Assembly (NCBI GenBank): GCA_017499595.2
Contig: CM039007.1
Location: forward strand, 2,294,001 to 2,358,000
Source: Psilocybe cubensis
Lineage: Eukaryota
Direction: 5' to 3'
Length of the DNA stretch: 64,000 bases
The translations under genes and the position numbers were made by a program. This document shows positions 9,562 to 48,542 of this stretch, in pieces (the stretch's first letter is position 1; each line of letters begins with the position of its first letter). The notes under the pieces are model-generated. The model did not search any database. It saw only the letters and a program-made list of their open reading frames with translations, and was not told where the DNA came from.

Positions 9562-11033
9562 ATATGGGTTATTTGCAACAGAATAACAAAAGCTGCTCAT
9601 TTCATTTCCATTAACGAGTCTATAGATGCTCCTGCCCTAGCTGAAATGTATTTAGATCATATCTTTTGTTATCACGGTTTCCCCGAGTCTATTGTCTGTG
9701 ATAGAGGATCAGTTTTCATCTCTTCTTTCCTCACAAATCTTATGAGACTCTGGGAAACCAAAATGCACCTTTCAACTGCCTACCATCCACAGACAGATGG
9801 TCTTATGAAAAGGACAAACCAAACATTGGAAGTCTATCTAAGAGCATTCTGTTTGTACAATTAGGACAATTGGGTAAATTTCTTGGCCACTGCTGAGTTC
9901 TTTTTTAACGATACCATGAATTCATCAACTCAGCAAACACTTTTTTTTTGCAAATTTAGGATATCATCCCACCTTTAACATCAAAATCACGGAATGCTCA
10001 ACAAATCTATCCGCCAACAATGTAGCATCATATCTTGACATCATACACAAGGAGTTACAAGCCGAGCTTTGACACGCTAATGAATATATCACCAATCACT
10101 ACAACTGTTATCATTTACCTGGCCCAGAATTCAAAATAGGCAATCAAGCATGGCTTTGTTGCAGGAATATCAAGACCATTTGTCCCTCTGATAAACTAGA
10201 CTACAGAAAAATTGGACTGTTTAAAATCCTAAACAAAAAAGGATTAACCTTGTATCTTCTTGAACTCCCTTGCTCATTATCTTGCTTACATTCCATTTTT
10301 TACATCTTGCTTTTAGAATTTTATATTCAAAACAATTTGCACCCAGTGACTCATAAGAATATTGAACTCAAAGAAGAGCCAACAAACAAAATTAAGAAAA
10401 TTCTGGATTGCCATAAGAAAACACCTGGGTTCCATTTTCAGAAATATCTAGACATGACTTCAATGTGCTTGAGTCTTTCCATTGTCAAAATCAATCCAAA
10501 CCTCACCCTCTGAGATTTGAGTTTTCAGCACTACCATATTCACAACCACAAACGTTGACCAAATACCAAAACATCCAATCATCAATTACCTTAATTATCA
10601 TCCCACAAACTCCACTGGAAAATCTGAAGCATGGATGACCAAATACAAACCTCCTTATCACTAGCATTTGCATACTGGTCGACAAATCAAACCACCATCT
10701 TGTTACCTTGCCTCCCCATAACAAGGGGGTAGTGTGATGATTTGTTTGATTACAATCACTTGTTATGGAACTCCAGACTTGTGATTGTATAGATTAGATA
10801 ACAGACACTTTAGATAGGTATTGGAAATCATGTATTTGATTTAGAACCATATCTATGGCTAACATAGTTTATACTCAAATATCTCCATAGTTAGACTATT
10901 TCATGATCTGAGTAGTATATAAAGTTTGTATTTATCAGAGTTGATTCCTCACGGAATCAACTCTGTGCCAGATTCCCAAATTCATACTTTTCTCTTTGGG
11001 CATATTTCTCTTTTTATCCAAGCATTTCTGACA
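9562..11033 (+). mobile_element. Degenerate Ty3/gypsy retrotransposon C (integrase remnant, PPT, 3' LTR)
   Basis: Gypsy integrase motifs IWVICNRITKAAHF, GFPESIVCDRGSVF, STAYHPQTDG and YLLELP, with several stops and frameshifts. PPT AAGGGGGTAG precedes TGTGATG at 10733. Confidence 0.88.
10733..11033 (+). repeat. Probable 3' LTR of gypsy C (~301 bp)
   Basis: TG start after the PPT, TATATAAA at ~10916-10923, candidate TGACA end at 11029-11033. The right boundary is inferred. Confidence 0.6.
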
Positions 11034-12865
11034 AGTACCAAAGTCCTCTTTAAAGTCTGTACAGGATGATTATGCTTATCAATGTAGTGATACTCTTATT
11101 GACTGAAGCATTTGATATTACTTTGTAATTAGTAAAAGCTACATCTTTAAAAATCAGTCTTAGAAGAAAAAAATCTGTTTTGTTAACATTTGGCAGTGCT
11201 GGTGCATAATCTCAATTAATATATTAAACTTATTCTATTTTCAAAATCCATATGATAGTTTGTAGTGCAATTTGCCTAGTATAGTATCCAGCTCTTTTAT
11301 TAAGATTAGAGCAAGTTTGGGAGTTACATTACAATAGGTTGTGTTTCTATATACTAAGACTTTGTTGAGCGGATAAATCATGGACTGCCTTGAAATATTG
11401 CAGAGAGCTAATAGAAAATGTACATTTTTTGTTGTGTGTACTATTATATCATTGCCGGTGAAAACCAAAGATAATTCCCATGACCTGTTAAGGTCTTAGT
11501 GGGTTTTTTATGGAGGAGACCAATTTTTTTGCCAAAGTAGATCGCATGATAATTTGTAATCCATTTTCCACATGATAATCTCCACACAGCCCACTCCAGT
11601 CCCCTTTGTTTTTTTTGCAAGATTCTGTTTTCTACAGTAGCGTGTGCCTTTGAAGGCCCTTTAGTTTCAACATAAACCTGCCACGCCATGAGGAGTCAAC
11701 CGGATGTTGACGACAAATGGCGGCAGTGGTGCTGAAATTAACATAAATTCAAGATGTATATAACATAAATTTGTTACTCATATAAAAAGCCATCATACCG
11801 TCTTGTGAGGACTTTGGAGCCTACATTGTCTCAGGACAAAAGTTGTTACAGGACTGCGGAAAAATATCAGGTATTCCAATCAAGTTTATATTTTGCAGTT
11901 GTTTTACTCATTTTGTTAGTTGATAATCAGTACTTTACTACAACTCTATCTCCCGCTTTTTGTCCTGGTTTACTAGTTGCTATTGAAGTTGTAAAAAAAT
12001 CTGGCACAGGTCTTTTGAGGCATTTGCTAAGTCCACTTTTATTATCAAGAGGAGGGCCAGAAATTATCTTCCAAATCCACTACTTATGCAACATTTTTTA
12101 ATAACATCAGCACTTAATTGTACTATTGGCATGCAAAGTCAGATCAAAAACTCTGTGAAAAGGAAAGTAGGTAGAAATAGCCAAAATATGTCTACTAGAA
12201 GAAAAAATAATGATATAGAATATAGAGATATAGTATGTGTTGGTGCGGCTTAGCATAATAATTAAATGCCCAGGTCGTGGGTACTGCCGTAGACTTGCAG
12301 CCCTGATTGATTTTAAACAGAATTCCCACGACCTGATAAGATCTTAGTGGGTTTATTAGGCATCCAAATTTTTTAACAAACCTTGTCATATGATTCTTTG
12401 TAATTATATAATCACGTGTGTTTGTTCATAACACTATAGTAAGTCATTCAAATTCAAACCAACATCCAAGAATGCAGCCTCCTTTTTTCATGCTACGTCT
12501 TATATCCCTATGTCATTCCGCTTTGACTCAGATTGCTTTTAAATTCTAAAAAATGTATTTAGCATTTGTCTTTTGCCCTTTATTATCATCACACTATGAA
12601 TCTCCCTATAGCTTTCATATCTGAACGCTGGCGTTCTGTACTTTTTAACCCACGTTTGCCGGAAAATTATGGTCAATGGGATGCCCAACCAGCTCACACA
12701 CTATCCATTGGCCTCCTCTCCCACAATGTCAATATCCTTTTCAATTATCAATCTTTAAATTTCATTGTTCCCTCAACTTTTATTCCAACCTATTATAACT
12801 TATTTTTAGTCAATGATACAGTAAGTATTTTGGGCAACAATAAGAAGGTAAGGTGAAAAGGTAAG

Positions 12866-15732: not shown

Positions 15733-17984
15733 ATGCATTCTGATGCGTTTGACGTGATACCGTACGATGTAAGTCTCCTGCCCGCGCGCGAGAAGGGTAG
15801 ATGCCGATCCACACCCCACTTGGATCTTTCCTCGTCTCGCACCCGCGCCGATGTGCTACGATTTTCTGTTTGCAATTGGGTATTTACATATGCCGTTTGT
15901 ACAGGATATCAAGGGCGACTGGCAGAAGCTCGGTTCTGGCTCCTTTGGAAATGTGTACAAAGGTCACTACCTCTCGGATCTTGCTCTCTCTTTGCACTAA
16001 TTCCCCCATAGGCAACTACCTCGGCATCGAAGTCGCGATAAAAGAGGTGCTCCCCTCGACCGAATACGATGTCGCCAAATACTTTGAACGCGAATGGCGA
16101 CTCATGAAAGAGTGCCGGCACCCCAACATCTGCCTCTTCATCGGACTCTCCCGCGCACCCCCGCCAGACAACCGCATCTTCATCGTCTCCGAATACATAG
16201 ACAACGGCAACGTGCGGCTCTACATCCACGACACCGCCCGCCCCTTCCCGTGGAAACTGCGGCTCTCCTTCGCCACAGACGTCGCCCGCGCACTCGCCTA
16301 CCTGCACGCGCGCTCCTGCATCCACCGCGACCTCAAAGGCGAGAACCTCCTCGTCACGTCCAACGGGCGCCTCAAAATCACCGACTTTGGCTTTGCGCGC
16401 ATCGCCGCGCGCAACTCGGAAGAGTCCAAGCGGCTCACCTTCTGCGGCACCGACGCGTACATGTCCCCCGAGATCCTGCGCGGCGACGCCTTCGCGCTGC
16501 CCACGGACGTCTTCTCGCTCGGCATCATCCTCTGCGAGATCGGTGCGCGCCGTCTTGCTGACGAACACCACTTCAAGCGCGCTGCGCCCTCTTTCGGTAT
16601 CGATCCCGCTGAGGTGAAGCGTCTGATGAGCCCTGGGTGCCCAGACGACTTTTACCAGCTATGTCTCGATTGCCTGCACACAGACCCCACCGCGCGTCCC
16701 ACAACGCGCGTCATCCTTGCGCGGCTTGGAGCGATCGAGGCCGAGGTCCTGCGCCGCCCGGGCGAGGGCGACGATGGGATGCATCTCGGAAGCGTGCGCT
16801 TTATGACGGGCGGCAAGCGGCCGACGCCCGCACCACGCATACCGAGCTTCGGTATGGGCGTAGGCAAGGATATCCGCAGCGGCGGGGCGAGCTCGTCAGA
16901 GGACGACAGTGACGACGAGGAGCTCATGGAGGCTGTTGCGGGCCTGTCCAGCGTTGGCATCAAAAGCGATTGGAGCGATAAATCCCTAAGTGAGCTCACT
17001 GTCCTCCTCCAATTTTGTCTACCTTTTTAATTTTACATCCATCTAGGCAAGCAACCGTTGCTCAACCGCACAACGGAATCCCATGGCTCAGAATACAGCA
17101 CAACAGTAATCAAACCGCACAACACATCCTCTCTTCCTCCCTCGCTCTCCTCGATCCTTACCATCCGCCCCTCTCCCGACCCTTCCCCCGCAGACCCGCC
17201 TTCCCCTCCTCAAGGCGCATCAACGCTCAACGGCCGCGCACCGCTCCAGGCCCTAGAAGACCCACTCGGCACCTCCTCCATCCTCTCCATCGCGACGATG
17301 GACTCATACCACACCGCCTCCGCCGCATCCGTCTCTCTCTCATCATCCACCGTCTCCAGCGCATACGCCACGGAGGGCGGGTCGACCATCCGCGGCGTCG
17401 ACGTCGACGGGGGTGGATACGCGCCTCCGCTCGTGCACCGTTTCACGCTGCTCAAGCCCGGCGCGAAGCAGAAGCGGCATAGCGGAAGCGGACCTGGCTC
17501 GCCCCCGCTCGGCGGCGCTGCCAACGGTAATGGCAACGGCAACGGTGGTGGTGGTGGTGGTGGTGGTGGTGCCGCGGCTCCAGAGACGTCGGGATGGAAC
17601 CCGCTCGAGATCCTATTCTCCAGCGGGCTGCTCGTGGGCAAATGCGATCTGTGCAATAAACGCCTGGGATGGAAGCCCGTGCTGGAGTGCGACGACTGTG
17701 GACTACGGTACGCACACCCTTACTACCATTTTTCATCATACATACGTCCCAGGACGCTAACCCTGCGTTGTTGCAGAACACACGTCAAATGCGGGGAGCT
17801 CGCGCCGCAGAACTGCGGCATCCGCCTCGCAGGGGCGGGGGGTGTCAGCGGGCCCGTCCCGACGCAAGAACAGCTGCAGAACCCGTTCTACGCCATGTCG
17901 CCGCTGTCCAAGGTCCGCCAGCAAGCGCAGCACGCCGGGGAGCAGATGAAGACGCGTTCAGCGGGCCCTCTTGCACGGCGCTAG
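15733..17984 (+). CDS. TKL-group LISK (TESK/LIMK-like) protein kinase with C-terminal C1 zinc-finger domain
   Basis: Spliced GSGSFGNVYKG, VAIK, HRDLKGEN, DFG, CGTDAYMSPE and DVFSLG. C-terminal HRF...CDLC...CDDC..THVKC...C. Introns at 15769-15904, 15963-16011, ~16989-17046 and ~17708-17776. Confidence 0.92.
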
Positions 17985-18675
17985 CCCCCCTCCCGCGTAG
18001 GTAGGTAGCTGGATATGCTGACATTGCTGCTCTCTTTCTTCATTTTTTTTTCCGTTTCATTCAACGGGTTTACGACGATACGACGCATGACGATATTCAA
18101 TCAACTTCATTCAAGCACACGCACGCACATACGGAACCCGCAAGCATAACTTATGCACAAGCAACAAACGTCTCTTTTAAAGTTCTCCTCCATCCCTCCC
18201 TCCCTCCCTCTTTCTCTTCCATTTTCTCCGCGGTTTCTTTTCATCATACACTTTTCTCGTCTCACGGACTTTCTCTTTCTCTCTCTCTCTTTTCAGTATT
18301 GACTTTCATCGTTGTTATACTCGTTACTCTGTATCGTGTGTCTACCAGTACTCTATTCATTATAAATCAATAATCCAAGGATGGTCAAGTACTTCTATAT
18401 TATATCATAATAGTATAAGGCAAGGCGTACGTCTAAATTTCTAAATTCGTCTAAGATAGTAGCAAAGCATCAGCATCAGCATCAGCATCACAGCCAACCA
18501 ATTACTCCTCCCCGGCACATCCAATTTCAGCCTGCCTGTCCAACGCGACACCACACCACACAACGCGACACAACGCAACGCAACGGACAGCGCAGTCCAA
18601 TAGCAACTACCCCCGCACTCCCTCCACTCCACTCCGCTCCGTCTCGTTCACGTTTACTTTTACTTGGATTATGGT

Positions 18676-21745: not shown

Positions 21746-22042
21746 TTTTTCGCGGAAAAACATCAATGAGGGAAGAGATATGTCGGAGCGGGAATTGCCG
21801 AGGACATTGAGACCTTGGCAACAGAAGATAGCGGCGAAAGAGTGATATGATCTTACCCTGGTTGCTCGAAAGTATGAACCTGGGAAAATAGAAAGCCATA
21901 GCCTTGGGTTGATTGTTCTGTTCTGCCTGGCTTGAGCCACTGTCAGTTTGAGTGTCCCTCTTCCTCGTCTTCTCTCAGCGGCAGGACCGTTTTCCTCAGC
22001 TTTCCCCTCGCTGAGCTGGTTCTTTATTCACTCGTTTATATC

Positions 22043-24824
22043 ATGCATTTCTCCACTTATTTCTCCAGGACGGGTATCAAGGCCAAAGCTGCCTCTGCCG
22101 TACGTGATACTTATTTTTCTTTTCACATTTTCAACTTTTGCTCACATATTGCTCCATTGAAGTACGCTCGCATCACACTCACACGGGGCACAGCGGCCTT
22201 CTTCGTCTTCAGCTTCATCTACTGCTTCATCCAAGGCATCGTCCAGTCCTTCCTCTTCTCCACAGACGTCGCCTATGGTTCTCTCGTCTCCGGCATCGTC
22301 TCCGGCTCAGGCCTCGTCACCCGCCAAGAGACCACCTTCCTCGAAGGCACCAGAGGCCATCTCATACTCCAGATGTGCACCGATATCCCGCACGGCCAAA
22401 AGGTCTATCCCTGCTTCACCATCTTCAACGCCTCGGCGCTCGCCAGCGATGGAGTCTCCGCGCCGGGCCCAGTGCGGACGCTGGGTGATCAGTGGGAAAA
22501 TGGTATGCAGATGACGGCCGGGATCGACGAGCAGACGAACCAGCCGGCCGTGGTGCTCCAGTCCAGCAACGCGAACATCACCCTCAGCCAGCAATGCGTG
22601 CGGAACCTCGCGTACACCTCTCAAATGTAAGATCCCCACCCCCAACCGTCCTCTCTAAACCACTCAATATCAATACAATACAGCCTTGCCAATCTACGAA
22701 GAGAGGACATCGCATGGATCTGCCTCCAATTCTGGCTCCTCGCCATCTCCTTCCTCGCAATCCTCAACGACTCCGTGCCACACATGTACGTCTAATTTAT
22801 TTATTTATATCCTCGTCCTCACTCCGATCATCCAACATCTCGCTAGTCTGTCAGTCCTAATGACACGCTTCATATCCACCGCCTGGTCCTCCTACTCGGT
22901 CTGGCGCGGGCAGGCCTTCAGCGCCAACTTCCAAGAACTAATAGGCGACCCCGGCACACCCTGCTCTCTCGACATCTTCCAGTCCTTCTGGGGCTCACGC
23001 TTCGGTCTCCAGGTGCGCCTACCAACATCACTGACTGACTGACTGACTGACTGACTGACTGCTGACCGCGCACCACGTCAAAAAAAAACATGCAGATAGC
23101 AGATCTGCTCTTGAGCGCGACAGGTCTCATTTTCTTCTTCTGTCTCTCCTGGAAACTTCTCAGGGTACGCACCGACCCTCCCCTCCTGTCCTCACCGCAT
23201 CACACCCATCCCAATCCCAACTAACTTGCCCACCCAGATCTACAGCGACCAGTCCTTCAAATGCGTCGGTGCCCCCGAACACGTAATGCGGATACACAAA
23301 GTCAGCCCATCTCCTCTCCCTCCTTCCCTACTTGATAATCTCCCAATCCCAATACCCATCCCAATACCCGATGCTAACCACTAACCACTGACCCCCACCC
23401 AGTTCTTCATGGCCCTCCTCGCCTCCCTCCAGCTCGAAGCATTCGTGCTCGTCACAAGCGGCGGGCTCTGGATCGACGTGCTCATGAACACCGCCATCGT
23501 CGAGATATCCGCACATACAAAATTGTATCAAGCGCTGTTTATTAGTACCACCATCGTACGTCACCCTCCCTCTCTCTGCCCCCCCTCTCTATCGCTAGTA
23601 CTCGTCTATATCAAGCTCACAATTATTTCATAGCTTTTGGTGCCGTGGATTGCAATGGTCCGTCTTCCCTCCCTTCCCTCCCCTCCATTCCCTCACATCC
23701 GCATCCCCAACATTAACACCTCACACAGGGCTGGTACTCAATCCGCCGAGAAATGAAACGGGTCATGATCATCTTCCTCGGGATCGGGATCTGCATCATG
23801 GCAGGCTGGGCGACCATGTTCTACTCGATAGTTTACAGATGGTGCGTTTTTCGCTTTTTACCCTTTTCTTTTTCCCTTTACCCTTTTCTTTTTCCCTTTA
23901 CCCTTTTCTTTTTCCCTTTACCCTTTTCTTTTTCCCTTTACCCTTTTCTTTTTCCCTTTACTCTTTTCTTTTTCCTTACTTCCTTACCTCCATCGACCCC
24001 GCCTCTCATTTTCCATACGCATTACATCCCACACCGTCCTAACTTGTTTTCCTTTACTTCCTCTATAATTATTTCCTTTACTCACTCACCGTCATTCCTT
24101 TTACCCTTTTAACAGGAGCTTCATGCAATGGCCCTTCCTAGGCTGCTTCACCGTCGCCTCCTTCATCCTCCTCCTCTCCAGCATCATCCTCGGCATCGTA
24201 TGCCGTATCAACTTTGGCAAAGGGCTCGCGCAGTACCGTAAGCATTTCCCCCTCCCTCTCTCTCTCCTTTTCCCTCTCCCTCTCCCTGCTCACTTCTCAT
24301 TTTCTCCCTTCTACCACCGCACACCCTCCCCAAATAATATTATCCCTCATTCTCATTCCCTATCCACTAATCCCTTTCTTTATCCCCTATCCCTTTCTTT
24401 ATCCCTTCATCCCTTATCCCTCATTCCCCATCCACTACTCACTAACCCCACACCAACAGTACACGCAGAAGAAACCCTCCAATCGCTCAACTTCGCCCCC
24501 GACGCATTCACAGTCCGCACACGCACAAACAGCATCAAAGACCTCGAGTCCCGCGCCGGCAGTGGCGGTAACAGTGGCGGAGGAGCGAACTTTTACCATC
24601 CAGGCGATGAAAAGTTCCACGACTCGGAGGACGATCACGATCATTATAAAAGCTCGAAGGACTTCACACAGATGTATTTTGTGCAGACGCTGCCGAGTCG
24701 TGCTGTAGGAGGAGGAGGAGGAGGGTTCCAGACAGAGTCGACTGCGCCGTCTTTCTACGAGTATTCAACGTCGAGGTCGACGTCGGACAGGAGTAGAGAA
24801 GAACGCTCATTTTTCACCGAGTGA
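22043..24824 (+). CDS. Multi-pass membrane protein, fungal conserved family (NFGKGL motif; possibly UPF0658-related)
   Basis: Multi-exon. Encodes YARITLTR, LRREDIAWICLQFWLLAISFLAILNDSVPH, SIRREMKR and WPFLGCF...CRINFGKGLAQY, with many hydrophobic segments. Confidence 0.8.
23031..23060 (+). repeat. (CTGA)7 microsatellite within intron 23013-23095
   Basis: Direct reading. Confidence 0.9.
23861..23980 (+). repeat. 20-bp tandem minisatellite (CCCTTTTCTTTTTCCCTTTA) x5 plus one degenerate copy, intronic
   Basis: Direct reading. Confidence 0.92.
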
Positions 24825-25597
24825 TTGATCAGTTGGTTCTGGCATATACCTACCTACCTCTTTCTTTGACATACCTCTTTCTTTCTTCCTTCCTTTCTTC
24901 CTTTCTTTCTTTGCCTTTTTTTTTCGTACTTCGTACTTCTTCTGTCTTTGAGCCTCGACGCCCGCCTTTCTTTCTTTCTTTGCCTTTTTCATTTACCTGT
25001 TCATTTTAACTTTCACCTCCATTTTCTCAACCCTTCCTTCCATTGTACCTCGTTCACTTTCGAACTTAGAATACTAGTGGACAATGTAAGTAAGTAAGTA
25101 TGTACGTACTACGCAGTCGTGTAAGCTAAGTTTTCCAAGTTAAAGCGATGATTTCGAGAATCGAGAATTCGAGAATCGAATCCCGTAACTCCTTGCCTTG
25201 TTTCGATTATCAATCTGTATACGTATACTGCATTGACAATGGACTTGCCATTTCCCACTTTCAAGGGTTTCACCTTGCAAGCTCCTCCGCTTCTCACCTA
25301 CATGATGGTACAAAAACACAACACCATCTCCAACACAACAAGCAGAGCAAAAAATAAAATAAAATAACAATAACAATAAAAAAAGTTACATACACAATCC
25401 CACCAGAAATTCATAAAAGGACTGAAGGTAGGTAAGTACCTAGTACCTAGGGTATGATGGACCGCGAGAACCCACGCCCACGATTCACAAAACCAACAAC
25501 ACATCCCCTCAAAAAAAAATTCATCCTCTCGTACTTGCTTCCTAATTCTATACATACACAATTCATCGACTTCAGACTTCCTCCTTTCTTATCTTTT

Positions 25598-28466
25598 TCA
25601 AATAGCGCCAGCGCGAGCACGAGGATTCGCAGGCAAGCCTTGCTTCACAAGCTTCCCCGCGCCGCCTCCAGACCTCGATCTCGAGCGCGCGCTCGCTCTC
25701 GACTGAATAGAAGACGACCTCTTTGGCACCCTCGTCAGAATATCTCCTTGGCCTACCGGTGCCGCAGCCGCCTCGGCGCCTTGCGTCCCTTTGGACTGGC
25801 TGGACGGGCTGGTGGGGTTGGATGTGCTGGAAGGACTAGTATCTCCACGAGCTTGAACGCGCGAGGCTTCGTTACGCCCATAGCCGCCTCGCACACCTTC
25901 CTCCTCACTCCCTTCATCATCCCACCCAGAGCGCACTCCCACCCCCTCCCTCATGTCCAGCCCAGGCGGCGGATACGGCACATCTCCCAGCACCGAGCCC
26001 CCCAAACTCTGACTCAGACTCTGCGACTTGCCATGCCCATGCCCAAACCCAAACCCATGCCCATACCCACCACCAAGCGACCCCGACCGCCGCGCCCTAC
26101 TCACAGCAACCTTCGCCAGCCTCGTGGGCGCAGGGGCCATCTCCGAAATAAGCGGCGGCGAGAACGAGAGCATCACAGGCGTCCCGGCGCCTTCATCCGA
26201 GTATATCGACGAGCCTCTATCCTGCACGCGCGGTCTCCCATTTGACTCCGCACGAGCGTGCGCGCGCGCCCGTGCCCGCGGTTGGGTGTGGGTGTACATG
26301 TGGGACTCGTCCTGCTGGTGTTGATGGCGGTGGGCCATGGCTGGCAGCTGGAGCGTGATATCTCCCAGCCGCGTTCCACTGGCATCACCTTGTCCTCCCT
26401 GCTTGGCTTTACCGTACAGATCCATCTTCTCAGTATCACCACCATAACCGTGCCCCTTCCAAAACGACACCGGCGTGAAATCAACACCCTCCAACGCGTC
26501 AGTGACTTGTACTACACCATCCAACAACAGTACGGTGAACATAACGCCAGCCGGCCCATCAATCAAAACGTTACGCATAGGAAAGGAAGGAAACTCACGG
26601 TAATGCGCTAACCCTTTGCCAAAGTTGAGTCTGCACACGATAGCTAGGACACTCGTGAAGACGGTCAGGACATAAGCTGTCACAGTGACAGTAGCGAAGA
26701 ACGGCCATGTCATGAAGATGTACCGATACACTTGAAAAAAACGAAAAAACGCAACCGTAAACCCATGATCAGCTTAGTGATGCGCGAAAAAAAGCTTACA
26801 TGGGCTGAAGAACATCAACGTCGAGATTGACAACAAGAAGATGGATATGGCACAAAAAATGCCAAATCGGATTCTACACTCCTTCCGAACGCACACCCAT
26901 CCCTTTCATAAAAGTTGATGTCAGCAAATGTGGCAGCACACAATAAATAATATCCTACAAGGTATAGCATCGGGAATTGAAACTGGAAGGTGACGAAGTC
27001 AGCGTTTATCTTCGGGGTCATAGATGCAGGTTGATGGGACGTACCACTAGGATAATAACGAAAGCAGCCAGATACAATTTCGAATGCAACGCCATCATTT
27101 TCATCATTCCATGACAGACTTTATCGATCCACATCGCAGAAGAAGCGAGCGAGAAGAACCCGGAGAGTTGCAGACCAACTGAGAACAGCAAAACGGTCTA
27201 CAAAAGCAAGATGAACAAACACATCACATTTATTTCCTCGAACAGGTTCGATTTTACCTTGTAAACTCCATGAATGACCGGAGAAGCGCCAACACGGCTA
27301 AACGACTCGGTGGCATATACCTACCATGTATCAATACTGTGCACCCAGATAAGTCCGAACAATAAAAGAGCTTACCTTGTACAATCTCGCAGAAACATAT
27401 AGCAATGCAAGTAATACTACGCTGTTGACGATCACGATTGGAACCTTGGATCCAAAAAATTAGGAATAAAACGGGATAGCAAGCCTGTCGTTTTAAAGAA
27501 TTCGATACTTACAGCGTGCTGTATCCTAATATCCCACCAACCCCCTAACAAATCTTTTCCACCACAAGCTTCAGGAACAATATGCCTGCGATAGAAACTT
27601 GTCAAGGCTTGTGACGATGATACACGATACCCAGCCCAGCCCGTGCCTAGGACATGGCCAAAGAACGCCGCCCCTAGATGAGGGATGGATTCATTCAAAA
27701 TCTACTTTGCAATAAGTAATATGGCAAGTTCCAGAAAAGCTATTTCTTACAGTTACGAGCGCCAGAGAGAAAAGCCAGATTTGGAAAAGAAAGGTTACGA
27801 TATCTTCCCGCTTGGAGTCTTCAAGTCTAAAACGACGATAAAATTTTAACAAAGCTTCCAGATACCAACCGAAATTGTAGACTCACGTTTCATCCAACCA
27901 AGCCATAGAAAGGATACAATTATCGCTCAAGCCAGAGTCATTAGTCAAAACGCTAGAAGCAGATTTAACAGGCGACCCATTTCTAAGACCATCCGTATCG
28001 CCATCACCGTTTCCAGCCTCTTCGATATCCAAAATATCACCGTCGTCGTCCCAGTGGCGCTTACTTTTTCTCGAACCAAAAACCAGGTGCACTGTGCACT
28101 TCGTCCCACGTTGATCTGGGATACTGGTACACGTCTGCAACACTCCTTTCTCTAGCACAAGCACTTGGTCAGAGGGGACATTCTTGACTACCGGCGCAAG
28201 CGCAGCTACGGCCATGGAGTTATCGGTGAATGCGACACCTTGTAGCGCACTGAGAACGATGCAAGAGGCGAAGGCGAGGAAGAAGTAGAATGTGGTAAAT
28301 CGCGTCAGAGTGATTCTACTGTACTGCAATCAAGGATACGGGGCATGGCTGAAGTGTTAGCAGCTGACTGTGTTCGTACGAGAACAGCGACGAGACGCAC
28401 CAGCAACTTCACTCGAAGTATAGAGAGTGTACGTTTCCATAGCTGGCGAGCGGCTAGGCTGACCAT
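25598..28466 (-). CDS. Multi-pass membrane protein, paralog of the 22043-24824 gene
   Basis: Encodes YSRITLTR, KREDIVTLLFQIWLFSL, LNESIPH and WPFFAT...CRLNFGKGLAHY, with a long low-complexity C-tail. Start inferred at 28466 (MVSLAARQLW) with a 56-nt first intron at 28324-28379. Confidence 0.8.
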
Positions 28467-36984: not shown

Positions 36985-39298
36985 TTGGTAAGCTTCGGGT
37001 GTTGCCGGCCCTGAAGTGAAGTTCAACTTGTTTCTCGAGAGGTTTTCTGAGCTCTCCAAAGATCTATATCATCTTATTATCTGCTATCATCCATTTTTGC
37101 ACAGATATACTGCATATATGCGTGCATAAACTTCCCGTACATGCAGAATCGATGAGTTATTCGTAAATCTTCTCAAAAACTCTAGTTTCGACTTGTTAAC
37201 TGGAGCCAAATCCACACTAATCCGTCTTAACCATCTCTCTTATTGAAGTAAACGATATATGAGAGGCGTCATTATATCATGGGTTAAATTTTAAACTCAG
37301 GTGAGAGGTTGAAGCTGGTAAGATATCTACGTCGACCCGAACCCGGTGGATTCTAATCAGGCCTGGCCCGCAATGCAATCGGATGACGAATCGATGACAG
37401 AGACACGAGTTAGTTATTCGATCGATAACTGGCAACAAATACAAACATACCCCTCTCGTCGAGTATATATACCCTCTACCCCTCTTCCAACCATTTCTTC
37501 CATCGACGTCCACCACCGCCACTTTGGTCTCCTATATGCTCAGGCTCACAGCGAGTTTTCGATGAAACGCCCTAGTGGAGATTCCATATTTGTCATCCTC
37601 TCGTTTGATACGCAACGTCAATCCAAGCATGGTGGATCATATACAGGCTTAGTTTGCATTTGGAGGATGAATGGAGTCCGAGTCTGGATGACACAGCGAT
37701 TATGACCCGTCGCTACACAGCGCGAGTTTCGTTTCACTCGCCCACGTCCTGACACGCTGAGGGTATAACAGCTCATTTGATCGATGACTACCAACAGCGT
37801 CGTATGCCATTGGTTAGATATATTTACCCAGACCCTCCTTTAACGAATTCTCCCCTCGACATCCACTATCGATCCTCTGATCTCCTTTACACGGAGTTTT
37901 ATTGAATCGCCTTTCTCATAGGAGACGCAAACCTAGCCGCCTAAAATGGTACTCGCTGATCCGCTATTCTTCATAGGAAGAGTCAGGAAAACTCGATGAT
38001 ACGCCACAGTTGACCACCGGAGTACTTCAAGGCAGACTATGGAACATCCTGAGGTCTCGTCTACTATTGGATAATTACACAATCAACGAGCTCTAATATC
38101 CGTAGCGACGCGCTGCGGTTCTCGCTTTGCCCACCAATGTCTCGCTTCACTGTGAGGCCAATTCTCTTCCAATCCGGTTCAGCATGTGTACCCTGGCTCT
38201 TCTTCAGCGATGATTTCCCTCGATATTCATCCCACTTTGCCTCTTTGTCTGCATTTATCCGCAGGCTTAAAGCGAATTATAACTCTTCTCGAAAAATCTA
38301 AATTCTGCGTCGTATGATGGATGACTAATTACCCAAACTCCTTCAACAAACGGGAGAACATGCATCCACTTTCGTCCCCTAGATCTCCAATACTTATCCC
38401 CAGGCCTGGGGATATTTCAGTACTTACTTCCCGACCAACTCAATGATGCACCTTAGTGGCTGTCCCTATCTGATATCTCGCCCAACTCAACCTCAAATAA
38501 TACGTTGATATATAGTAGGAAAACCACCACATGCACCCATAACTACTGTTTCCACGTTCTCGTCCAACCGTAAATGGTACAACCAACTAACGCCACCCAC
38601 ACCGCAATCACAATTCCCTTCTAAATAGTCAAATTTGCACCCCAGAACAGAAGCTCACACACTGATAACGATGGTAAGTGTTTCCATTCTACTCTGATTT
38701 GGGAAATGAGGAAATGGCTCTACAACTGTCAAGGGTTCCCCTTGTCTCTGATACCAGTAGCAATGGCTATAAAAAAACAGTTCAATCATCTTTCAAACAA
38801 ATGGACTCCTTTCCCAGAGGGTCCCGATGAATATATGGAGTGAAGAAGAAGCTTGCGCGTCATCCAGCAAATACTTTGGACTGCTATTCAAACTGTACAT
38901 TGCTACTCGAACAGGTGGACCCATGGAACTTTTTTATAGGAACTATTTGCACATCCCAATCACAGTTCACCGCTGATCTACTTGTGCCGTTGCAGGTCTC
39001 ATCAGATTGCAACTATGAAAATCCGGTGACTAGGTTTAAAAAAGAATGTAAGTGGGACTCGACATAGATAAGGCAACAAAGCGACAGACAACATGTCAAA
39101 GACCCAATAATAATGCATTCAGCCGTTCGATTCGATGGGCCCCCATGTCGAAAATACTTCTCCACAGAAGCTACAGGTTCCAAATGTTGGTAGCGAGCAC
39201 TGACAAAAACAAGATTATCTCAGTTCAAGTCTGCTTTATATGCTGAGGTTTTGAAGATTGACATTACCATTTTTTAGCCACATCTCTCTTTTTTCACC

Positions 39299-40891
39299 AT
39301 GTCTACCCCAGAAATACCATCCATCTCCCAGAGAGATGTTGCTAGATAGTGAGTGCTTGGTGCCTTAGACGTTATCGCAAGGCCTGCTAATCTTCACTCG
39401 TTCGTTACAACAAACAGCGAGCGAATCCAAGGGTATATTCACACATCCGCACTCTCAGTTTTGCTATACGATTTCACTCTCACTTTTGGCGCCGAAGTGC
39501 ACTTCATCTGGAGACGACCAAAAACTCTGAGCAGCTATCTCTATTTCTTGCAGAGATTATTGGTTGTATTAGCTTTCATCCCAACAATCGACCTTCTCTT
39601 AAACGCAGATATCCGACCACAAAACGGCTTTGAAGTAAGCTGAATTCAGTATAATACCTCTTATTTGACATATATCTGACTTCTGATTTGTTGGAAAGAG
39701 GTTTGCAATGCCGACATTCACGGTGGACTATGCTGACTTGAATGTATCTCGAAGATGTCCTTCAGATGTTGTTGAAAACATAGCCACAGTTGTGCTAGTA
39801 GCCAATGAATTCTTTATCAACTGTAAGTTCTCTCACCTCTCCATGCTTATTTTTGTGTTAATATTTTCTACGTAGTTTATCTGAGTCTCAGAATTTGTGC
39901 TCTTTACAAGCAATCACGCTACGTTATAGCATTTGCAACTGTTTCGGCGGTTATCGCCATTTTGATACCATGCATGGTTTGTAATAAGTCCGTCCCACTC
40001 TTTTACAAGCTTATGGATAGAAACAGCTTTTCTTAAGCAATAAGCAAACAGGGTGTGATCGCTTCTTTGCTCATGAAGTGTATGTTTTTCATATACATCC
40101 AATGGACTCGATTATCTGTTAATCTTCTGTTTTCCCATCTTGCCTCAAAATAGATCTATGAGTGGGTTTCGCTACAATTTCTAGCCTATATGATGATATT
40201 TACATGTTCATCTTTCTGAGGGCAGTGTTGCTGGCGTCATGGGGGTTTCTGATTCTATATGAATCCATCCTCTTTGGATTGATTCTCTACAAAGTTATCA
40301 AAGATAAACCGCACCGTTTAGCTGGACTCGGAATAGGCAGGCGCTCATCAATACGATTTCTAATTCTCAGAGATGGTGTGTAAATATCCCTTTCTTGGAC
40401 TTAGAAACAAAGCTTAGTCCTTCTAAAGGTGTCCTATACTACCTGTAAGCATCATCGTTTATCAAATGCAGTTCTTTAATTTAACCAATTCTGCAGAGTG
40501 GTGATAATTTTCAATGTCGCAAACGTTGCTACTTTTTTTGTAAGCTATCATTCACTTTCATGATCACATCTGTTACTAGCTAATTCACTATCAACTCAGC
40601 TTCCTCAAGTGCGTCCTTGGTTCTTTTTAATATTTTAAAGCTCAACTTTAGGCAATCCAGCCATTTCTCCGCGGGTGCTTGTCCAGGCTATCTGGCAAGT
40701 AAGAATTATTCTTACTCAATTTCCAAATGCATTCCAAATTAGACGCTGATACTATGCTACCCAGTATATCAATCATCATGATGACGCGCCTTGTGCTCAA
40801 TCTGCACGAAACGGCAGATGGTGATATAGGATCGTACCCTTCAAAAATCTCTTCGTTACATTTCCAAGCGTCAAATTTTGATGATAACTAA
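39299..40891 (+). CDS. DUF6533-domain multi-pass (7TM-like) membrane protein, tandem copy 1
   Basis: VLLYDFTLTFGAEVHFIW..K...YLYFLQR, LRICALY, LILRDGVLYY and MMTRLVLNL are hallmarks of this Agaricomycete family. Many small exons. Confidence 0.85.
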
Positions 40892-41470
40892 AGGACATAA
40901 TAGTTTTTCTTCTCAAAACCATCCTTGTATTATTCAAGTCATTGATGGGATGCGCAATCATACACCCGACTTCCACGACCAGTGGCAACATGATACAACG
41001 AAACTGATAAATTGCAGGAAACTTCTTTCCTTTAATCTAATCTAATATCTACTACTATCGAGTCGTGAACTCAAGTCCTCTACCTCCAGGATAAAAGATA
41101 TTGAGCTATCGAGCTTATAACTCAACTACTCTATTCAGAAGACTGGCAGACTCGCTATTGGTGACAATGACAACTGCTCCATTGCACCCTTTTATGAACT
41201 GAGGAGATGGCTCTACAACAATCACGAATCGCCACGCACAGTCACGTACTATCCATAGTATGTGATGACAAATAGTGATGTAAATAACGATCAGTGATTC
41301 TAGCGGATTTTCACCGTCCATGGCACTCCCATCCCCTTATTCGGCCAAGGTTATGCTATAGAATTGAGAACAGAAAGTAACTTGAAAATTATCTCAGTCC
41401 AAGTTTGCTTTATATTCCTGAGGTTTGACGATTGGTAATAACATTTCTGTCCACTTCTTTTCATTCTTTA

Positions 41471-43061
41471 ATGGCCAGCTCAGAAACGCCAGTTTTCTCC
41501 CTAAAGGATGATGCCACATTGTGGGTGCTTGATGTCTTGAATATATTGTATATTACTTATATTGACCTGTTTGTTGCGGAAAACAGCGAGAGGATCCAAG
41601 CATGCATTCATGCATCCGCATTATCAGTGCTTCTATATGACTTTACTCTCACTTTTGGAGCCGAAGTGCACTTCATCTGGAGTCGGCCAAAAAATCTGAA
41701 CAGCTATCTCTATTTCCTCCAGAGATTCTTGGCCTTGCTTACTCTCATCCCCTCAATTGAAGTTTTCCGGGATGCAGATATTGGGTCTGTGAGTCTTTGA
41801 ATGATACAACATGCTCAATATATACCCTGACCTCCCATCTTTGAAAGAGGTTTGCGATGCCAATATTCATGTTTTAATGTGCTGAAATACATCTCACAGA
41901 TGTTCTTCGGGTCTAGTTGAAAAGGCATCCGTACTTTTGCTATTAACTAGCGAGTTCCTCGTCAATTGTGAGTGAATCTCTCTAATACACGCGGATATTT
42001 CAAGCTGTAAACAACTCTCTGTTTAAGTGTATCTTAGCATCAGGATCTACGCCCTTTATAAACAATCACGTCGCATAATAACGCTCGTGGTGTTCTCGTC
42101 CGTTATTGTGACTTTGATACCATGCCTAGTTCGTAACAAATCCATGCTCCTATTCCAAAGCTCACTGACTGGAATAGCTGTTTTTGGCCAACGGCCAGCA
42201 AACAGGGTGCAGGCTATCCTTTTCCCATGAAATGTATGCTATCATTTATCTACAATGGACATATTCGTCTGATTGTATCGCATTGTGCGGTCACGCAACG
42301 CCATCCAAAACAGATCAATGAGTGAGTTTCGAGTTGTGTCCAAGCATGCCCTGTCTGCAGCTTGTGAAGTATGTTACTCATGTATTGTCCTGAGGGCAGA
42401 GTTGGCGGCGTCATGGGGATTTTTGATTCTGTATGAATCCATCCTCTTTGGATTGATTCTCTACAAGATTGTCAAAGATAGGCCGCACCGTTTACCTGGA
42501 CTCGGGATAGGCAGGCGCTCGTCAATACGATTTCTAATTCTCAGAGACGGTGCGTGAATAACCCTCAGTTCTTGAACTTGAGAACCAAAGCTTAGTCCTC
42601 TGAAGGTGTCTTATATTACCTGTGAGCATCCTTGTTCTAGCAAATGCACTTTATTTTATTTAATTCTGCAGAGTGGTGATAATGTTCAATCTGGCAAACA
42701 CTGCTACTTACTTTGTAAGCTATTCACTTTCATGATCTCGTCCGTTACTAGCTAATTAATTCACTGTCAACGCAGCTTCCTCAGGTACGTCCTTGGTTCT
42801 CCTTCATATTTTAAAGCTCAAATTTAGGCAATCAAGCCATTCCTCCGCGGGTGCTTGGCAAGGTTAACCTGCAAGTAAGAATTATTCACACTCACTTTCC
42901 AAATGTGTTCCAGATTAGATGCTGAAATTATGCTACCCAGCATATCAATCATCATGATGACGCGCCTGGTACTCAATCTGCAGAAAACAGCAGATGGTGG
43001 TATAATATCGCGCCCATGCCAGGTTTCGTTACACTTCCAAACGTCAAATCTCGATATTTGA
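41471..43061 (+). CDS. DUF6533-domain multi-pass membrane protein, tandem copy 2
   Basis: Same motifs and exon-intron structure as copy 1. Confidence 0.85.

Positions 43062-46097: not shown

Positions 46098-48542
<2,445 letters not shown>

Follow-up and report, generated by a model that had tools for sequence, protein, structure and literature searches.

How the reading frame of two tandem DUF6533 genes of Psilocybe cubensis is carried from the second exon to a conserved cysteine codon is the question raised by this locus: in both copies the upstream exon ends in phase 0, and the downstream exon needs two further bases to give R-C-P/S. The initial annotation had proposed that these bases come from a 2-nt exon, AG. 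Our analysis of the window (the whole 64,000-nt stretch of DNA in which both genes lie) indicates that these tandem membrane-protein genes most likely contain one 2-nt exon apiece.

Gene models, protein family and public annotation

The following gene models were obtained.

39299..40891, + strand: DUF6533 gene copy 1, re-derived 13-exon CDS of 296 aa, open over 891 nt
39299-39348, 39418-39634, 39699-39700, 39755-39822, 39876-39976, 40027-40079, 40154-40161, + strand: copy 1 exons 1-7
40226-40375, 40429-40444, 40497-40539, 40600-40608, 40652-40698, 40765-40891, + strand: copy 1 exons 8-13
39418..39634, + strand: copy 1 exon 2, with the DUF6533 domain, phase 0 at its end
39755..39822, + strand: copy 1 exon 4, starting A-TGT, in which TGT is the conserved Cys
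41471..43061, + strand: DUF6533 gene copy 2, 13-exon CDS of 290 aa
41471-41520, 41587-41788, 41848-41849, 41900-41967, 42028-42128, 42178-42233, 42314-42321, + strand: copy 2 exons 1-7
42400-42549, 42606-42621, 42672-42714, 42776-42784, 42828-42874, 42941-43061, + strand: copy 2 exons 8-13
40154..40161, + strand: 8-nt exon of copy 1 (copy 2 homologue 42314-42321)
40429..40444, + strand: 16-nt exon of copy 1 (copy 2 homologue 42606-42621)
40600..40608, + strand: 9-nt exon of copy 1 (copy 2 homologue 42776-42784)

When AG was counted as an exon, both copies gave intact ORFs with 12 intron positions in common, and all 24 splice sites in the two 13-exon models were canonical. Exon lengths differed between the copies by 15, 3, and 6 nt, all multiples of 3. 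The dN/dS ratio between the copies was 0.28 over 289 codons lying on both sides of the microexon junction, so the frame has to be maintained across it in both genes. No third DUF6533 copy was detected in the window by tblastn and blastn.

The exon-2 translations of both copies matched the Pfam family DUF6533 (PF20151) with E values of 3e-14 (53.2 bits) and 4e-13 (49.7 bits), above the gathering cut-off of 24.1 bits, which agrees with the family assignment made in the initial annotation. These were the two matches among four pieces scanned; the 22-aa exon-4 pieces (n=2) had no Pfam match. Similarity reached the full length of the protein, past the 46-residue DUF6533 domain: 47 of 150 fetched relatives aligned over at least 220 residues of the 296-aa copy 1 model in blastp, and relative P0011 matched residues 8-289 with an E value of 6e-43. 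Cys91, which forms a conserved pair with Cys156, was kept in 31 of 39 relatives, and it fixes the downstream frame together with the hydrophobic segment after it, whereas the residue preceding it showed no conservation among the 39. Only five hydrophobic stretches of the re-derived protein exceeded a crude hydropathy threshold. Word-based protein searches, which covered length classes other than the "shorter" one, returned only P0001 (JR316_0010977) and one Suillus protein and no public protein for copy 2.

The public model for copy 1, JR316_0010977 (P0001, 232 aa), removes 39635-39698 and reads 39701-39754 as coding. It thus lacks the microexon and translates intron 3 as protein, in keeping with the expectation that gene predictors miss such exons. 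It also skips approximately 600 nt downstream, with loss of the central hydrophobic segments, and is clearly wrong there. The main worth of the microexon finding lies in the correction of this annotation. If microexons of 2-16 nt proved common in DUF6533, many database members would probably be mis-built, and gene counts, structure models, and alignments of the family would be distorted as a result.

The AG dinucleotide and its flanking introns

The junction between exons 2 and 4 is made up of the following elements.

39635..39698, + strand: copy 1 intron 2, 64 nt, donor GTAAGC, CTGAC 19 nt before its end, acceptor AAG (GAAAG)
39699..39700, + strand: copy 1 proposed 2-nt exon AG, completed to an Arg codon by the next A (AG+A), directly before Cys91
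39701..39754, + strand: copy 1 intron 3, 54 nt, donor GTTTGC, CTGAC 18 nt before its end, acceptor AAG (GAAG)
41789..41847, + strand: copy 2 intron 2, 59 nt, donor GTGAGT, CTGAC 17 nt before its end, acceptor AAG
41848..41849, + strand: copy 2 proposed 2-nt exon AG
41850..41899, + strand: copy 2 intron 3, 50 nt, donor GTTTGC, acceptor CAG

All of the coordinates, splice motifs, and phases that had been given for the two copies were present in the sequence, and omission of AG broke the frame as predicted, with a stop after 6 codons in either copy. The four introns flanking the microexon were 50-64 nt long, and the 20 other introns of both genes 43-80 nt; read as a single intron, the same span would measure 120 nt in copy 1 and 111-115 nt in copy 2. 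Each of the four carried CTGAC or CTGAA 14-19 nt upstream of its acceptor, with no AG in between, including copy 1 intron 2, whose acceptor is the first AG past CTGAC; the strict CTRAY motif was absent from copy 2 intron 3. The introns on both sides of the microexon are canonical (GT-AG), have donors fitting GTNNGY, carry branch motifs, and are of ordinary length. Retention of intron 3 in copy 2 led to a stop, and its length differed by 4 nt from that of copy 1 intron 3, which together mark intron 3 as intronic. Dinucleotide shuffles of the span contained a 2-nt-exon solution in 22 of 5000 cases for copy 1 and 10 of 5000 for copy 2; to count, a solution had to have a donor fitting GTNNG, a loosely defined branch motif, and sub-introns between 43 and 80 nt long.

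A 13-nt block over the microexon (39694-39706 and 41843-41855) was identical in both copies, confirming the reported identity of GAAAG-AG-GTTTGC between the paralogs. Outside the longer exons, it was the only identical run of at least 10 nt in the 5' half of the genes except for one of 10 nt that straddles the intron 1/exon 2 border. Identity between the copies was 40/57 in intron 2 and 37/50 in intron 3. The accompanying statement that the flanking introns diverge is correct for the 5' half but not for the whole gene, where introns (522/657) were as similar as exons (685/862), both at 79%. The two paralogs are non-independent witnesses for the microexon.

In a position-weight model of splice sites trained on 20 mutually non-independent introns, the signals flanking the microexon were the weakest in the gene: the donor GTTTGC scored 1.3 bits, the lowest of 24 (others, 5.0-10.6 bits), and the four flanking acceptors scored 0.2-2.8 bits versus 1.2-8.8 bits for the rest. 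A G at position +5 was present in 24/24 donors, including GTTTGC, while position +6 was T in 14, C in 8, and A in 2; GTTTGT is used as donor at intron 5 of copy 1. Acceptors of both genes were CAG (13/24), AAG (6/24), or TAG (5/24), with GAG in 0/24.

Alternative readings of the junction

All paths with one or two introns were enumerated, allowing GT and GC donors and a minimum intron length of 40 nt; in copy 1, 20 donors and 11 acceptors combined into 100 open paths. Most paths either removed conserved sequence from exon 2 or 4 or relied on GC donors, and were rejected; among the paths listed, both flanks were kept only by the microexon model and the alternatives considered here. The candidate 2-nt exon is the sole in-frame solution with homologous GT-AG sites in both copies. 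A profile of 39 relatives gave the microexon model 237.7 bits in copy 1, against 234.0 and 231.7 bits for the alternatives, and 230.7 bits in copy 2, against 228.9 and 228.3 bits. Since the margin is just 1.8-6 bits and the loop before the conserved Cys varies in length among the relatives, some of which carry long inserts, homology hardly separates the junction models. The following site is also relevant.

41785..41790, + strand: alternative donor in copy 2, GTCTGT, beginning 4 nt before GTGAGT

The microexon had been described as required in both genes; it does give the best model, but copy 1 also stays open when the 54-nt intron 3 (18 codons) is retained, and copy 2 stays in frame through the GTCTGT donor and a 115-nt intron. 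The microexon might thus be absent and each copy conventionally spliced in its own way, which we regard as unlikely: in copy 1 only 39635-39698 would be removed, leaving 39699-39822 as one exon and adding 18 residues to the loop, and in copy 2 a single 115-nt intron would run from GTCTGT at 41785 to 41899. Both solutions are open and in frame, JR316_0010977 follows the copy 1 version, GTCTGT matches GTNNGT, and loop length before the Cys is variable among the relatives. However, paralogs whose other intron positions all coincide would then differ here by unrelated solutions, and the conserved AG-AG-GTTTGC block, the branch motifs, and the acceptors would be left unexplained, a combination found in at most 0.5% of shuffles. 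The 115-nt intron falls outside the 43-80 nt range, GTCTGT scored 2.5 bits versus 8.9 bits for the adjacent GTGAGT in the model built from 20 non-independent introns, and the 18 retained codons of copy 1 are noncoding in copy 2 on account of a stop and a 4-nt indel. The profile scores were slightly below those of the microexon model, and the public model that backs the copy 1 version is the one with the downstream error noted above. A GC-AG intron (donor GCCGAC or GCCAAT) preceded by an exon of 11 nt (39699-39709; 41848-41858) would likewise be open and in frame, at homologous positions in both copies, and would add R-F-A-I ahead of the Cys in each, with profile scores (234.0 and 228.3 bits) near those of the microexon model. 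It is extremely improbable, given GC donors of -7.4 and -8.8 bits that lack the +5 G seen in 24/24 donors, introns of 45 and 41 nt, and disregard of the conserved GTTTGC. Decay of both genes into pseudogenes, with the frame break as a shared inactivating lesion, would be consistent with the small size of the subfamily (only two proteins at E 1e-10 or better among 1.84 billion representatives) and with the failure to find a public protein model for copy 2; the dN/dS value, the two intact 13-exon ORFs, the canonical splice sites, and exon indels restricted to multiples of 3 make it highly improbable.

The initial annotation had further suggested a possible on/off switch through use of the second AG as acceptor. 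Under such a switch, regulated choice between the two AGs (39698/39700; 41847/41849) would decide whether the mRNA is productive or is frameshifted and short-lived. The second AG is present in both copies, its use would lead to a stop within 7 codons, and the weak flanking signals would permit regulation. Yet the second AG would be a GAG acceptor, a type used at 0/24 sites here, and the frame-keeping AG is the first after the branch motif. The same arrangement of an acceptor AG followed by an exon AG occurs at intron 9 in both copies, so the AG-AG layout at the microexon is not special, and the switch did not stand up as a likely explanation; we consider it very unlikely. Also quite unlikely is a reading in which the junction, placed in the first outer loop of a GPCR-like receptor, would be spliced in any of three ways. 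Under it, inclusion of AG would give the normal protein, use of the second AG would give a frameshift and decay, and, in copy 1 only, retention of intron 3 would give an in-frame receptor with a loop 18 residues longer by the conserved Cys. If this were true, the weak signals would let the fungus tune the form or dose of the receptor by condition.

Proposed splicing and comparison with known systems

We consider it probable, and hold with fair confidence, that in both copies AG acts as an internal exon of 2 nt, constitutively included and bordered on either side by a short GT-AG intron of ordinary type. AG would fill positions one and two of an Arg codon; this residue falls in the loop that leads to the third hydrophobic segment, directly before the conserved Cys. 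Short fungal introns are recognised by intron definition, so each flanking intron would be recognised singly and the length of the exon would matter little. From the layout of the sites we infer splicing of both introns and its order: U1 pairing at GTTTGC would overlap the upstream acceptor AG, so the introns would probably be removed consecutively. If the upstream intron were removed first, the resulting junction, AAG-GTTTGC in copy 1 and TAG-GTTTGC in copy 2, would present a usable donor, regenerated in a manner reminiscent of recursive splicing. Were the downstream intron the first to go, the upstream intron would be expected to take the first AG past CTGAC (AAG) and not the GAG two bases on. 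Both orders of removal would produce an identical mRNA.

DUF6533, a large family in basidiomycetes, was recently connected to a peptide-sensing receptor on the basis of fold (PMC13652807). The two P. cubensis proteins resemble the DUF6533/Gpe1-like seven-helix receptors of that report in their Pfam match, full-length similarity, and conserved Cys 91 and 156; they differ in that only five hydrophobic stretches pass the crude threshold, and a receptor function is putative.

For splicing biology, the junction would represent one more instance of a phenomenon already reported. The near overlap of an acceptor with a donor recalls recursive splice sites (zero-length exons) and fungal stwintrons, with which the junction would also share probable consecutive removal and a donor context regenerated after the first step. 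Those systems leave nothing in the mRNA, however, which the P. cubensis junction does not fit: when the whole intervening sequence is excised using the strong donors, translation runs out of frame into a stop, so two bases have to remain. Single-nucleotide exons described in Fusarium CYP621A (PMC12940212) and Arabidopsis (PMC4674806) were similarly inferred from a phase mismatch and related genes, and they also precede a conserved residue or motif; they are backed by read-level confirmation and 20 orthologues, whereas the present case has two paralogs and their sequence.

The closest parallel comes from a long-read (Nanopore and PacBio) annotation of Coprinopsis cinerea, in which 57 2-nt exons were reported in 50 genes. 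Of 89 gene models there that include an exon no longer than 3 nt, 63 acquire a premature stop when it is omitted; these ultra-short exons sit between short introns and are missed by predictors (PMC12230235). Three supplement files of that report (4,286 characters) contain no DUF6533, PF20151, or microexon. In contrast to the read-based C. cinerea exons, the P. cubensis microexon is predicted from genomic sequence, but it shares with them its occurrence in Agaricomycetes, the 2-nt size, the short flanking introns, the stop upon omission, and the failure of predictors to find it. The P. cubensis pair is thus probably a further member of a rare 2-nt exon type already documented in mushrooms.

Structure of the tandem DUF6533 genes

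Two tandem DUF6533 genes, copy 1 (39299–40891) and copy 2 (41471–43061), lie on the forward strand in a duplicated unit (39211–40882 versus 41385–43055; 73% identity over 1722 aligned positions) that includes about 90 nt 5' of each ATG; no third DUF6533 copy was found within the window. The exon-2 translations matched Pfam DUF6533 (PF20151) with E values of 3e-14 (copy 1) and 4e-13 (copy 2), and the two short exon-4 pieces gave no Pfam match, leaving two of the four pieces matched overall. When copy 1 exon 2 was searched without a profile against 1.84 billion representative proteins, 176 matched at E ≤ 0.001, only two of them at ≤ 1e-10; the best, with 100% identity, was P0001, the public protein of copy 1 (hypothetical protein JR316_0010977, Psilocybe cubensis, 232 aa).

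When a 2-nt AG is treated as exon 3, rebuilding by coordinates yields an intact 13-exon ORF in each copy (296 aa in copy 1, 290 aa in copy 2), with 12 introns at identical positions within about 1.6 kb, an unusually fragmented structure. Residues 8–289 of the copy 1 model aligned to P0011, a DUF6533 relative, at E 6e-43, and alignment with family members was nearly end to end; 143 of the 150 relatives fetched matched, 47 of them over at least 220 residues. Between the copies, dN/dS was 0.28 over 289 codons, exon lengths differed by 15, 3, and 6 nt, and most intron length differences were not divisible by 3, indicating that the frame is kept across the junction in both genes. Three other very short exons are conserved, and both genes need them for the frame and for the match to relatives:

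40154–40161 (copy 1) and 42314–42321 (copy 2), forward strand, 8-nt exon
40429–40444 (copy 1) and 42606–42621 (copy 2), forward strand, 16-nt exon
40600–40608 (copy 1) and 42776–42784 (copy 2), forward strand, 9-nt exon

Tiny exons are thus a habit of this tandem gene.

The public model JR316_0010977 is mis-built. Mapped back on the window, P0001 keeps intron 3 (39701–39754) as coding, leaves out 39977–40579, and then translates stretches of intron 10, exon 12 (there in a different frame), and intron 12; through these errors the model lacks roughly 100 conserved core residues. Its intronic or wrong-frame segments are as follows:

40580–40609, intronic or wrong-frame segment of P0001
40653–40679, intronic or wrong-frame segment of P0001
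40745–40764, intronic or wrong-frame segment of P0001

Word-based searches, which have limited sensitivity, found no public protein for copy 2, which may be unannotated.

Intron identity between the copies was 65–74% for introns 1–5 and 79–91% for introns 6–12, and the 3' half of both copies contains many long identical runs inside introns; gene conversion of the 3' half may explain the higher identity there. Elsewhere in the window, an Hsp70 gene lies on the reverse strand at about 46100–47730 (PF00012 at E 7e-136 and 1e-52 in two ORFs). The opposite strand there carries ORFs matching PF10712 'NAD-GH', a family known to consist of antisense Hsp70 frames. GC content ranged from 0.35 (10001–12000) to 0.63 (16001–18000), and GC skew was strongly negative (−0.35 and −0.32) at 22001–26000.

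The proposed two-base exon and its splice signals

The initial annotation had proposed the AG exon between introns 2 and 3, and its coordinates and motifs were all correct when checked in the sequence:

39699–39700, forward strand, proposed AG exon of copy 1
41848–41849, forward strand, proposed AG exon of copy 2

Exon 2 ends in phase 0 (39634 in copy 1, 41788 in copy 2) and exon 4 starts A/TGT (39755 and 41900), needing two preceding bases. As had been claimed, skipping AG breaks the frame: joining exon 2 directly to exon 4 leads to a stop after six codons in both copies. The junction reads GTAAGC...CTGAC...AAG/AG/GTTTGC...CTGAC...AAG in copy 1 and GTGAGT...CTGAC...AAG/AG/GTTTGC...CTGAA...CAG in copy 2. 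In the 5' half, if the longer exons are set aside, the copies share only two identical runs of at least 10 nt: one of 13 nt over the AG (39694–39706) and one of 10 nt that spans the boundary between intron 1 and exon 2. Since introns are as similar as exons over the whole gene (79% each), conservation of the 13-nt block is informative for the 5' half alone.

The four introns flanking the microexon measure 50–64 nt, within the 43–80 nt range of the other 20, and each has as its acceptor the first AG past a CTGAC or CTGAA motif 14–19 nt upstream. G occupies +5 in all 24 donors of the rebuilt models, including GTTTGC, and +6 is T (14), C (8), or A (2). Scored with a weight matrix derived from the remaining 20 introns, a small set of paralogous pairs, GTTTGC reached 1.3 bits, the lowest of the 24 donors (the rest 5.0–10.6), and the four flanking acceptors 0.2–2.8 bits versus 1.2–8.8 for the others. 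A 2-nt solution of equal quality arose in 22 of 5000 shuffles for copy 1 and 10 of 5000 for copy 2, or in 5 and 2 when a strict CTRAY branch motif was demanded, a test that intron 3 of copy 2 itself fails.

Alternative splicing paths and the proposed mechanism

One- and two-intron paths were enumerated across the junction, and among those listed that keep both flanks, three remain beside the microexon. In copy 1, splicing only 39635–39698 would make 39699–39822 one exon, adding 54 nt (18 open codons), and this is exactly the reading of P0001; the 54 versus 50 nt length of intron 3 in copies 1 and 2, together with the other length and dN/dS data, argues that the piece after AG behaves as an intron. 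In copy 2, the donor GTCTGT (41785), which precedes GTGAGT by 4 nt, would give a single 115-nt intron in frame, but single-intron alternatives measure 111–120 nt against 43–80 nt for the other 20 introns. An 11-nt exon (39699–39709 and 41848–41858) followed by a GC-AG intron would serve both copies, although its donors, GCCGAC and GCCAAT, score −7.4 and −8.8 bits. Against a profile from 39 relatives, the microexon models were ahead by only 1.8–6 bits; relatives differ in the length of the loop at the junction and do not conserve the residue preceding the Cys. The statement that the microexon is required in both genes was thus too strong, because in-frame alternatives keep both flanks; what stands is that, judged from the sequence, it is the only solution with homologous canonical sites in both paralogs.

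For the microexon, the best-supported mechanism is two ordinary short introns, each recognized separately and excised one after the other. Removal would be consecutive, as base pairing of U1 with GTTTGC reaches into the upstream acceptor, and the product would be the same whichever intron goes first, so long as splicing takes the first AG. The acceptor there is of the AAG type (6/24 here), and the AG two bases on is of the GAG type (0/24). Intron 9 in both copies also ends in CAG before an exon starting with AG (40495–40498 and 42670–42673), so the AGAG layout alone is no sign of a switch. The suggested on/off control, in which the second AG as acceptor would give a zero-length exon and a frameshift, is speculation.

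Protein context and other ultra-short exons

AG and the next A form the codon of Arg90, directly ahead of Cys91. Of 39 relatives, 31 keep this Cys and 38 keep another one at position 156. A recent paper (PMC13652807) describes many DUF6533 proteins as sharing a fold with the Ustilago peptide receptor Gpe1. On that reading, Cys91 and Cys156 could form the loop disulfide common in receptors, with the microexon then located in the first outer loop. Only five segments passed a crude hydropathy scan.

Judged by titles and the start of abstracts, none of the five papers found for DUF6533 deals with gene structure. In the Coprinopsis cinerea long-read annotation (PMC12230235), internal exons of ≤15 nt occur in 1,165 gene models and exons of ≤3 nt in 89, of which 63 run into a stop if the exon is left out; 57 exons, in 50 genes, are 2 nt long. 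One-nucleotide exons are likewise reported for Fusarium CYP621A (PMC12940212) and Arabidopsis (PMC4674806). Two-base exons are thus already known, and the P. cubensis DUF6533 pair probably adds a further case.
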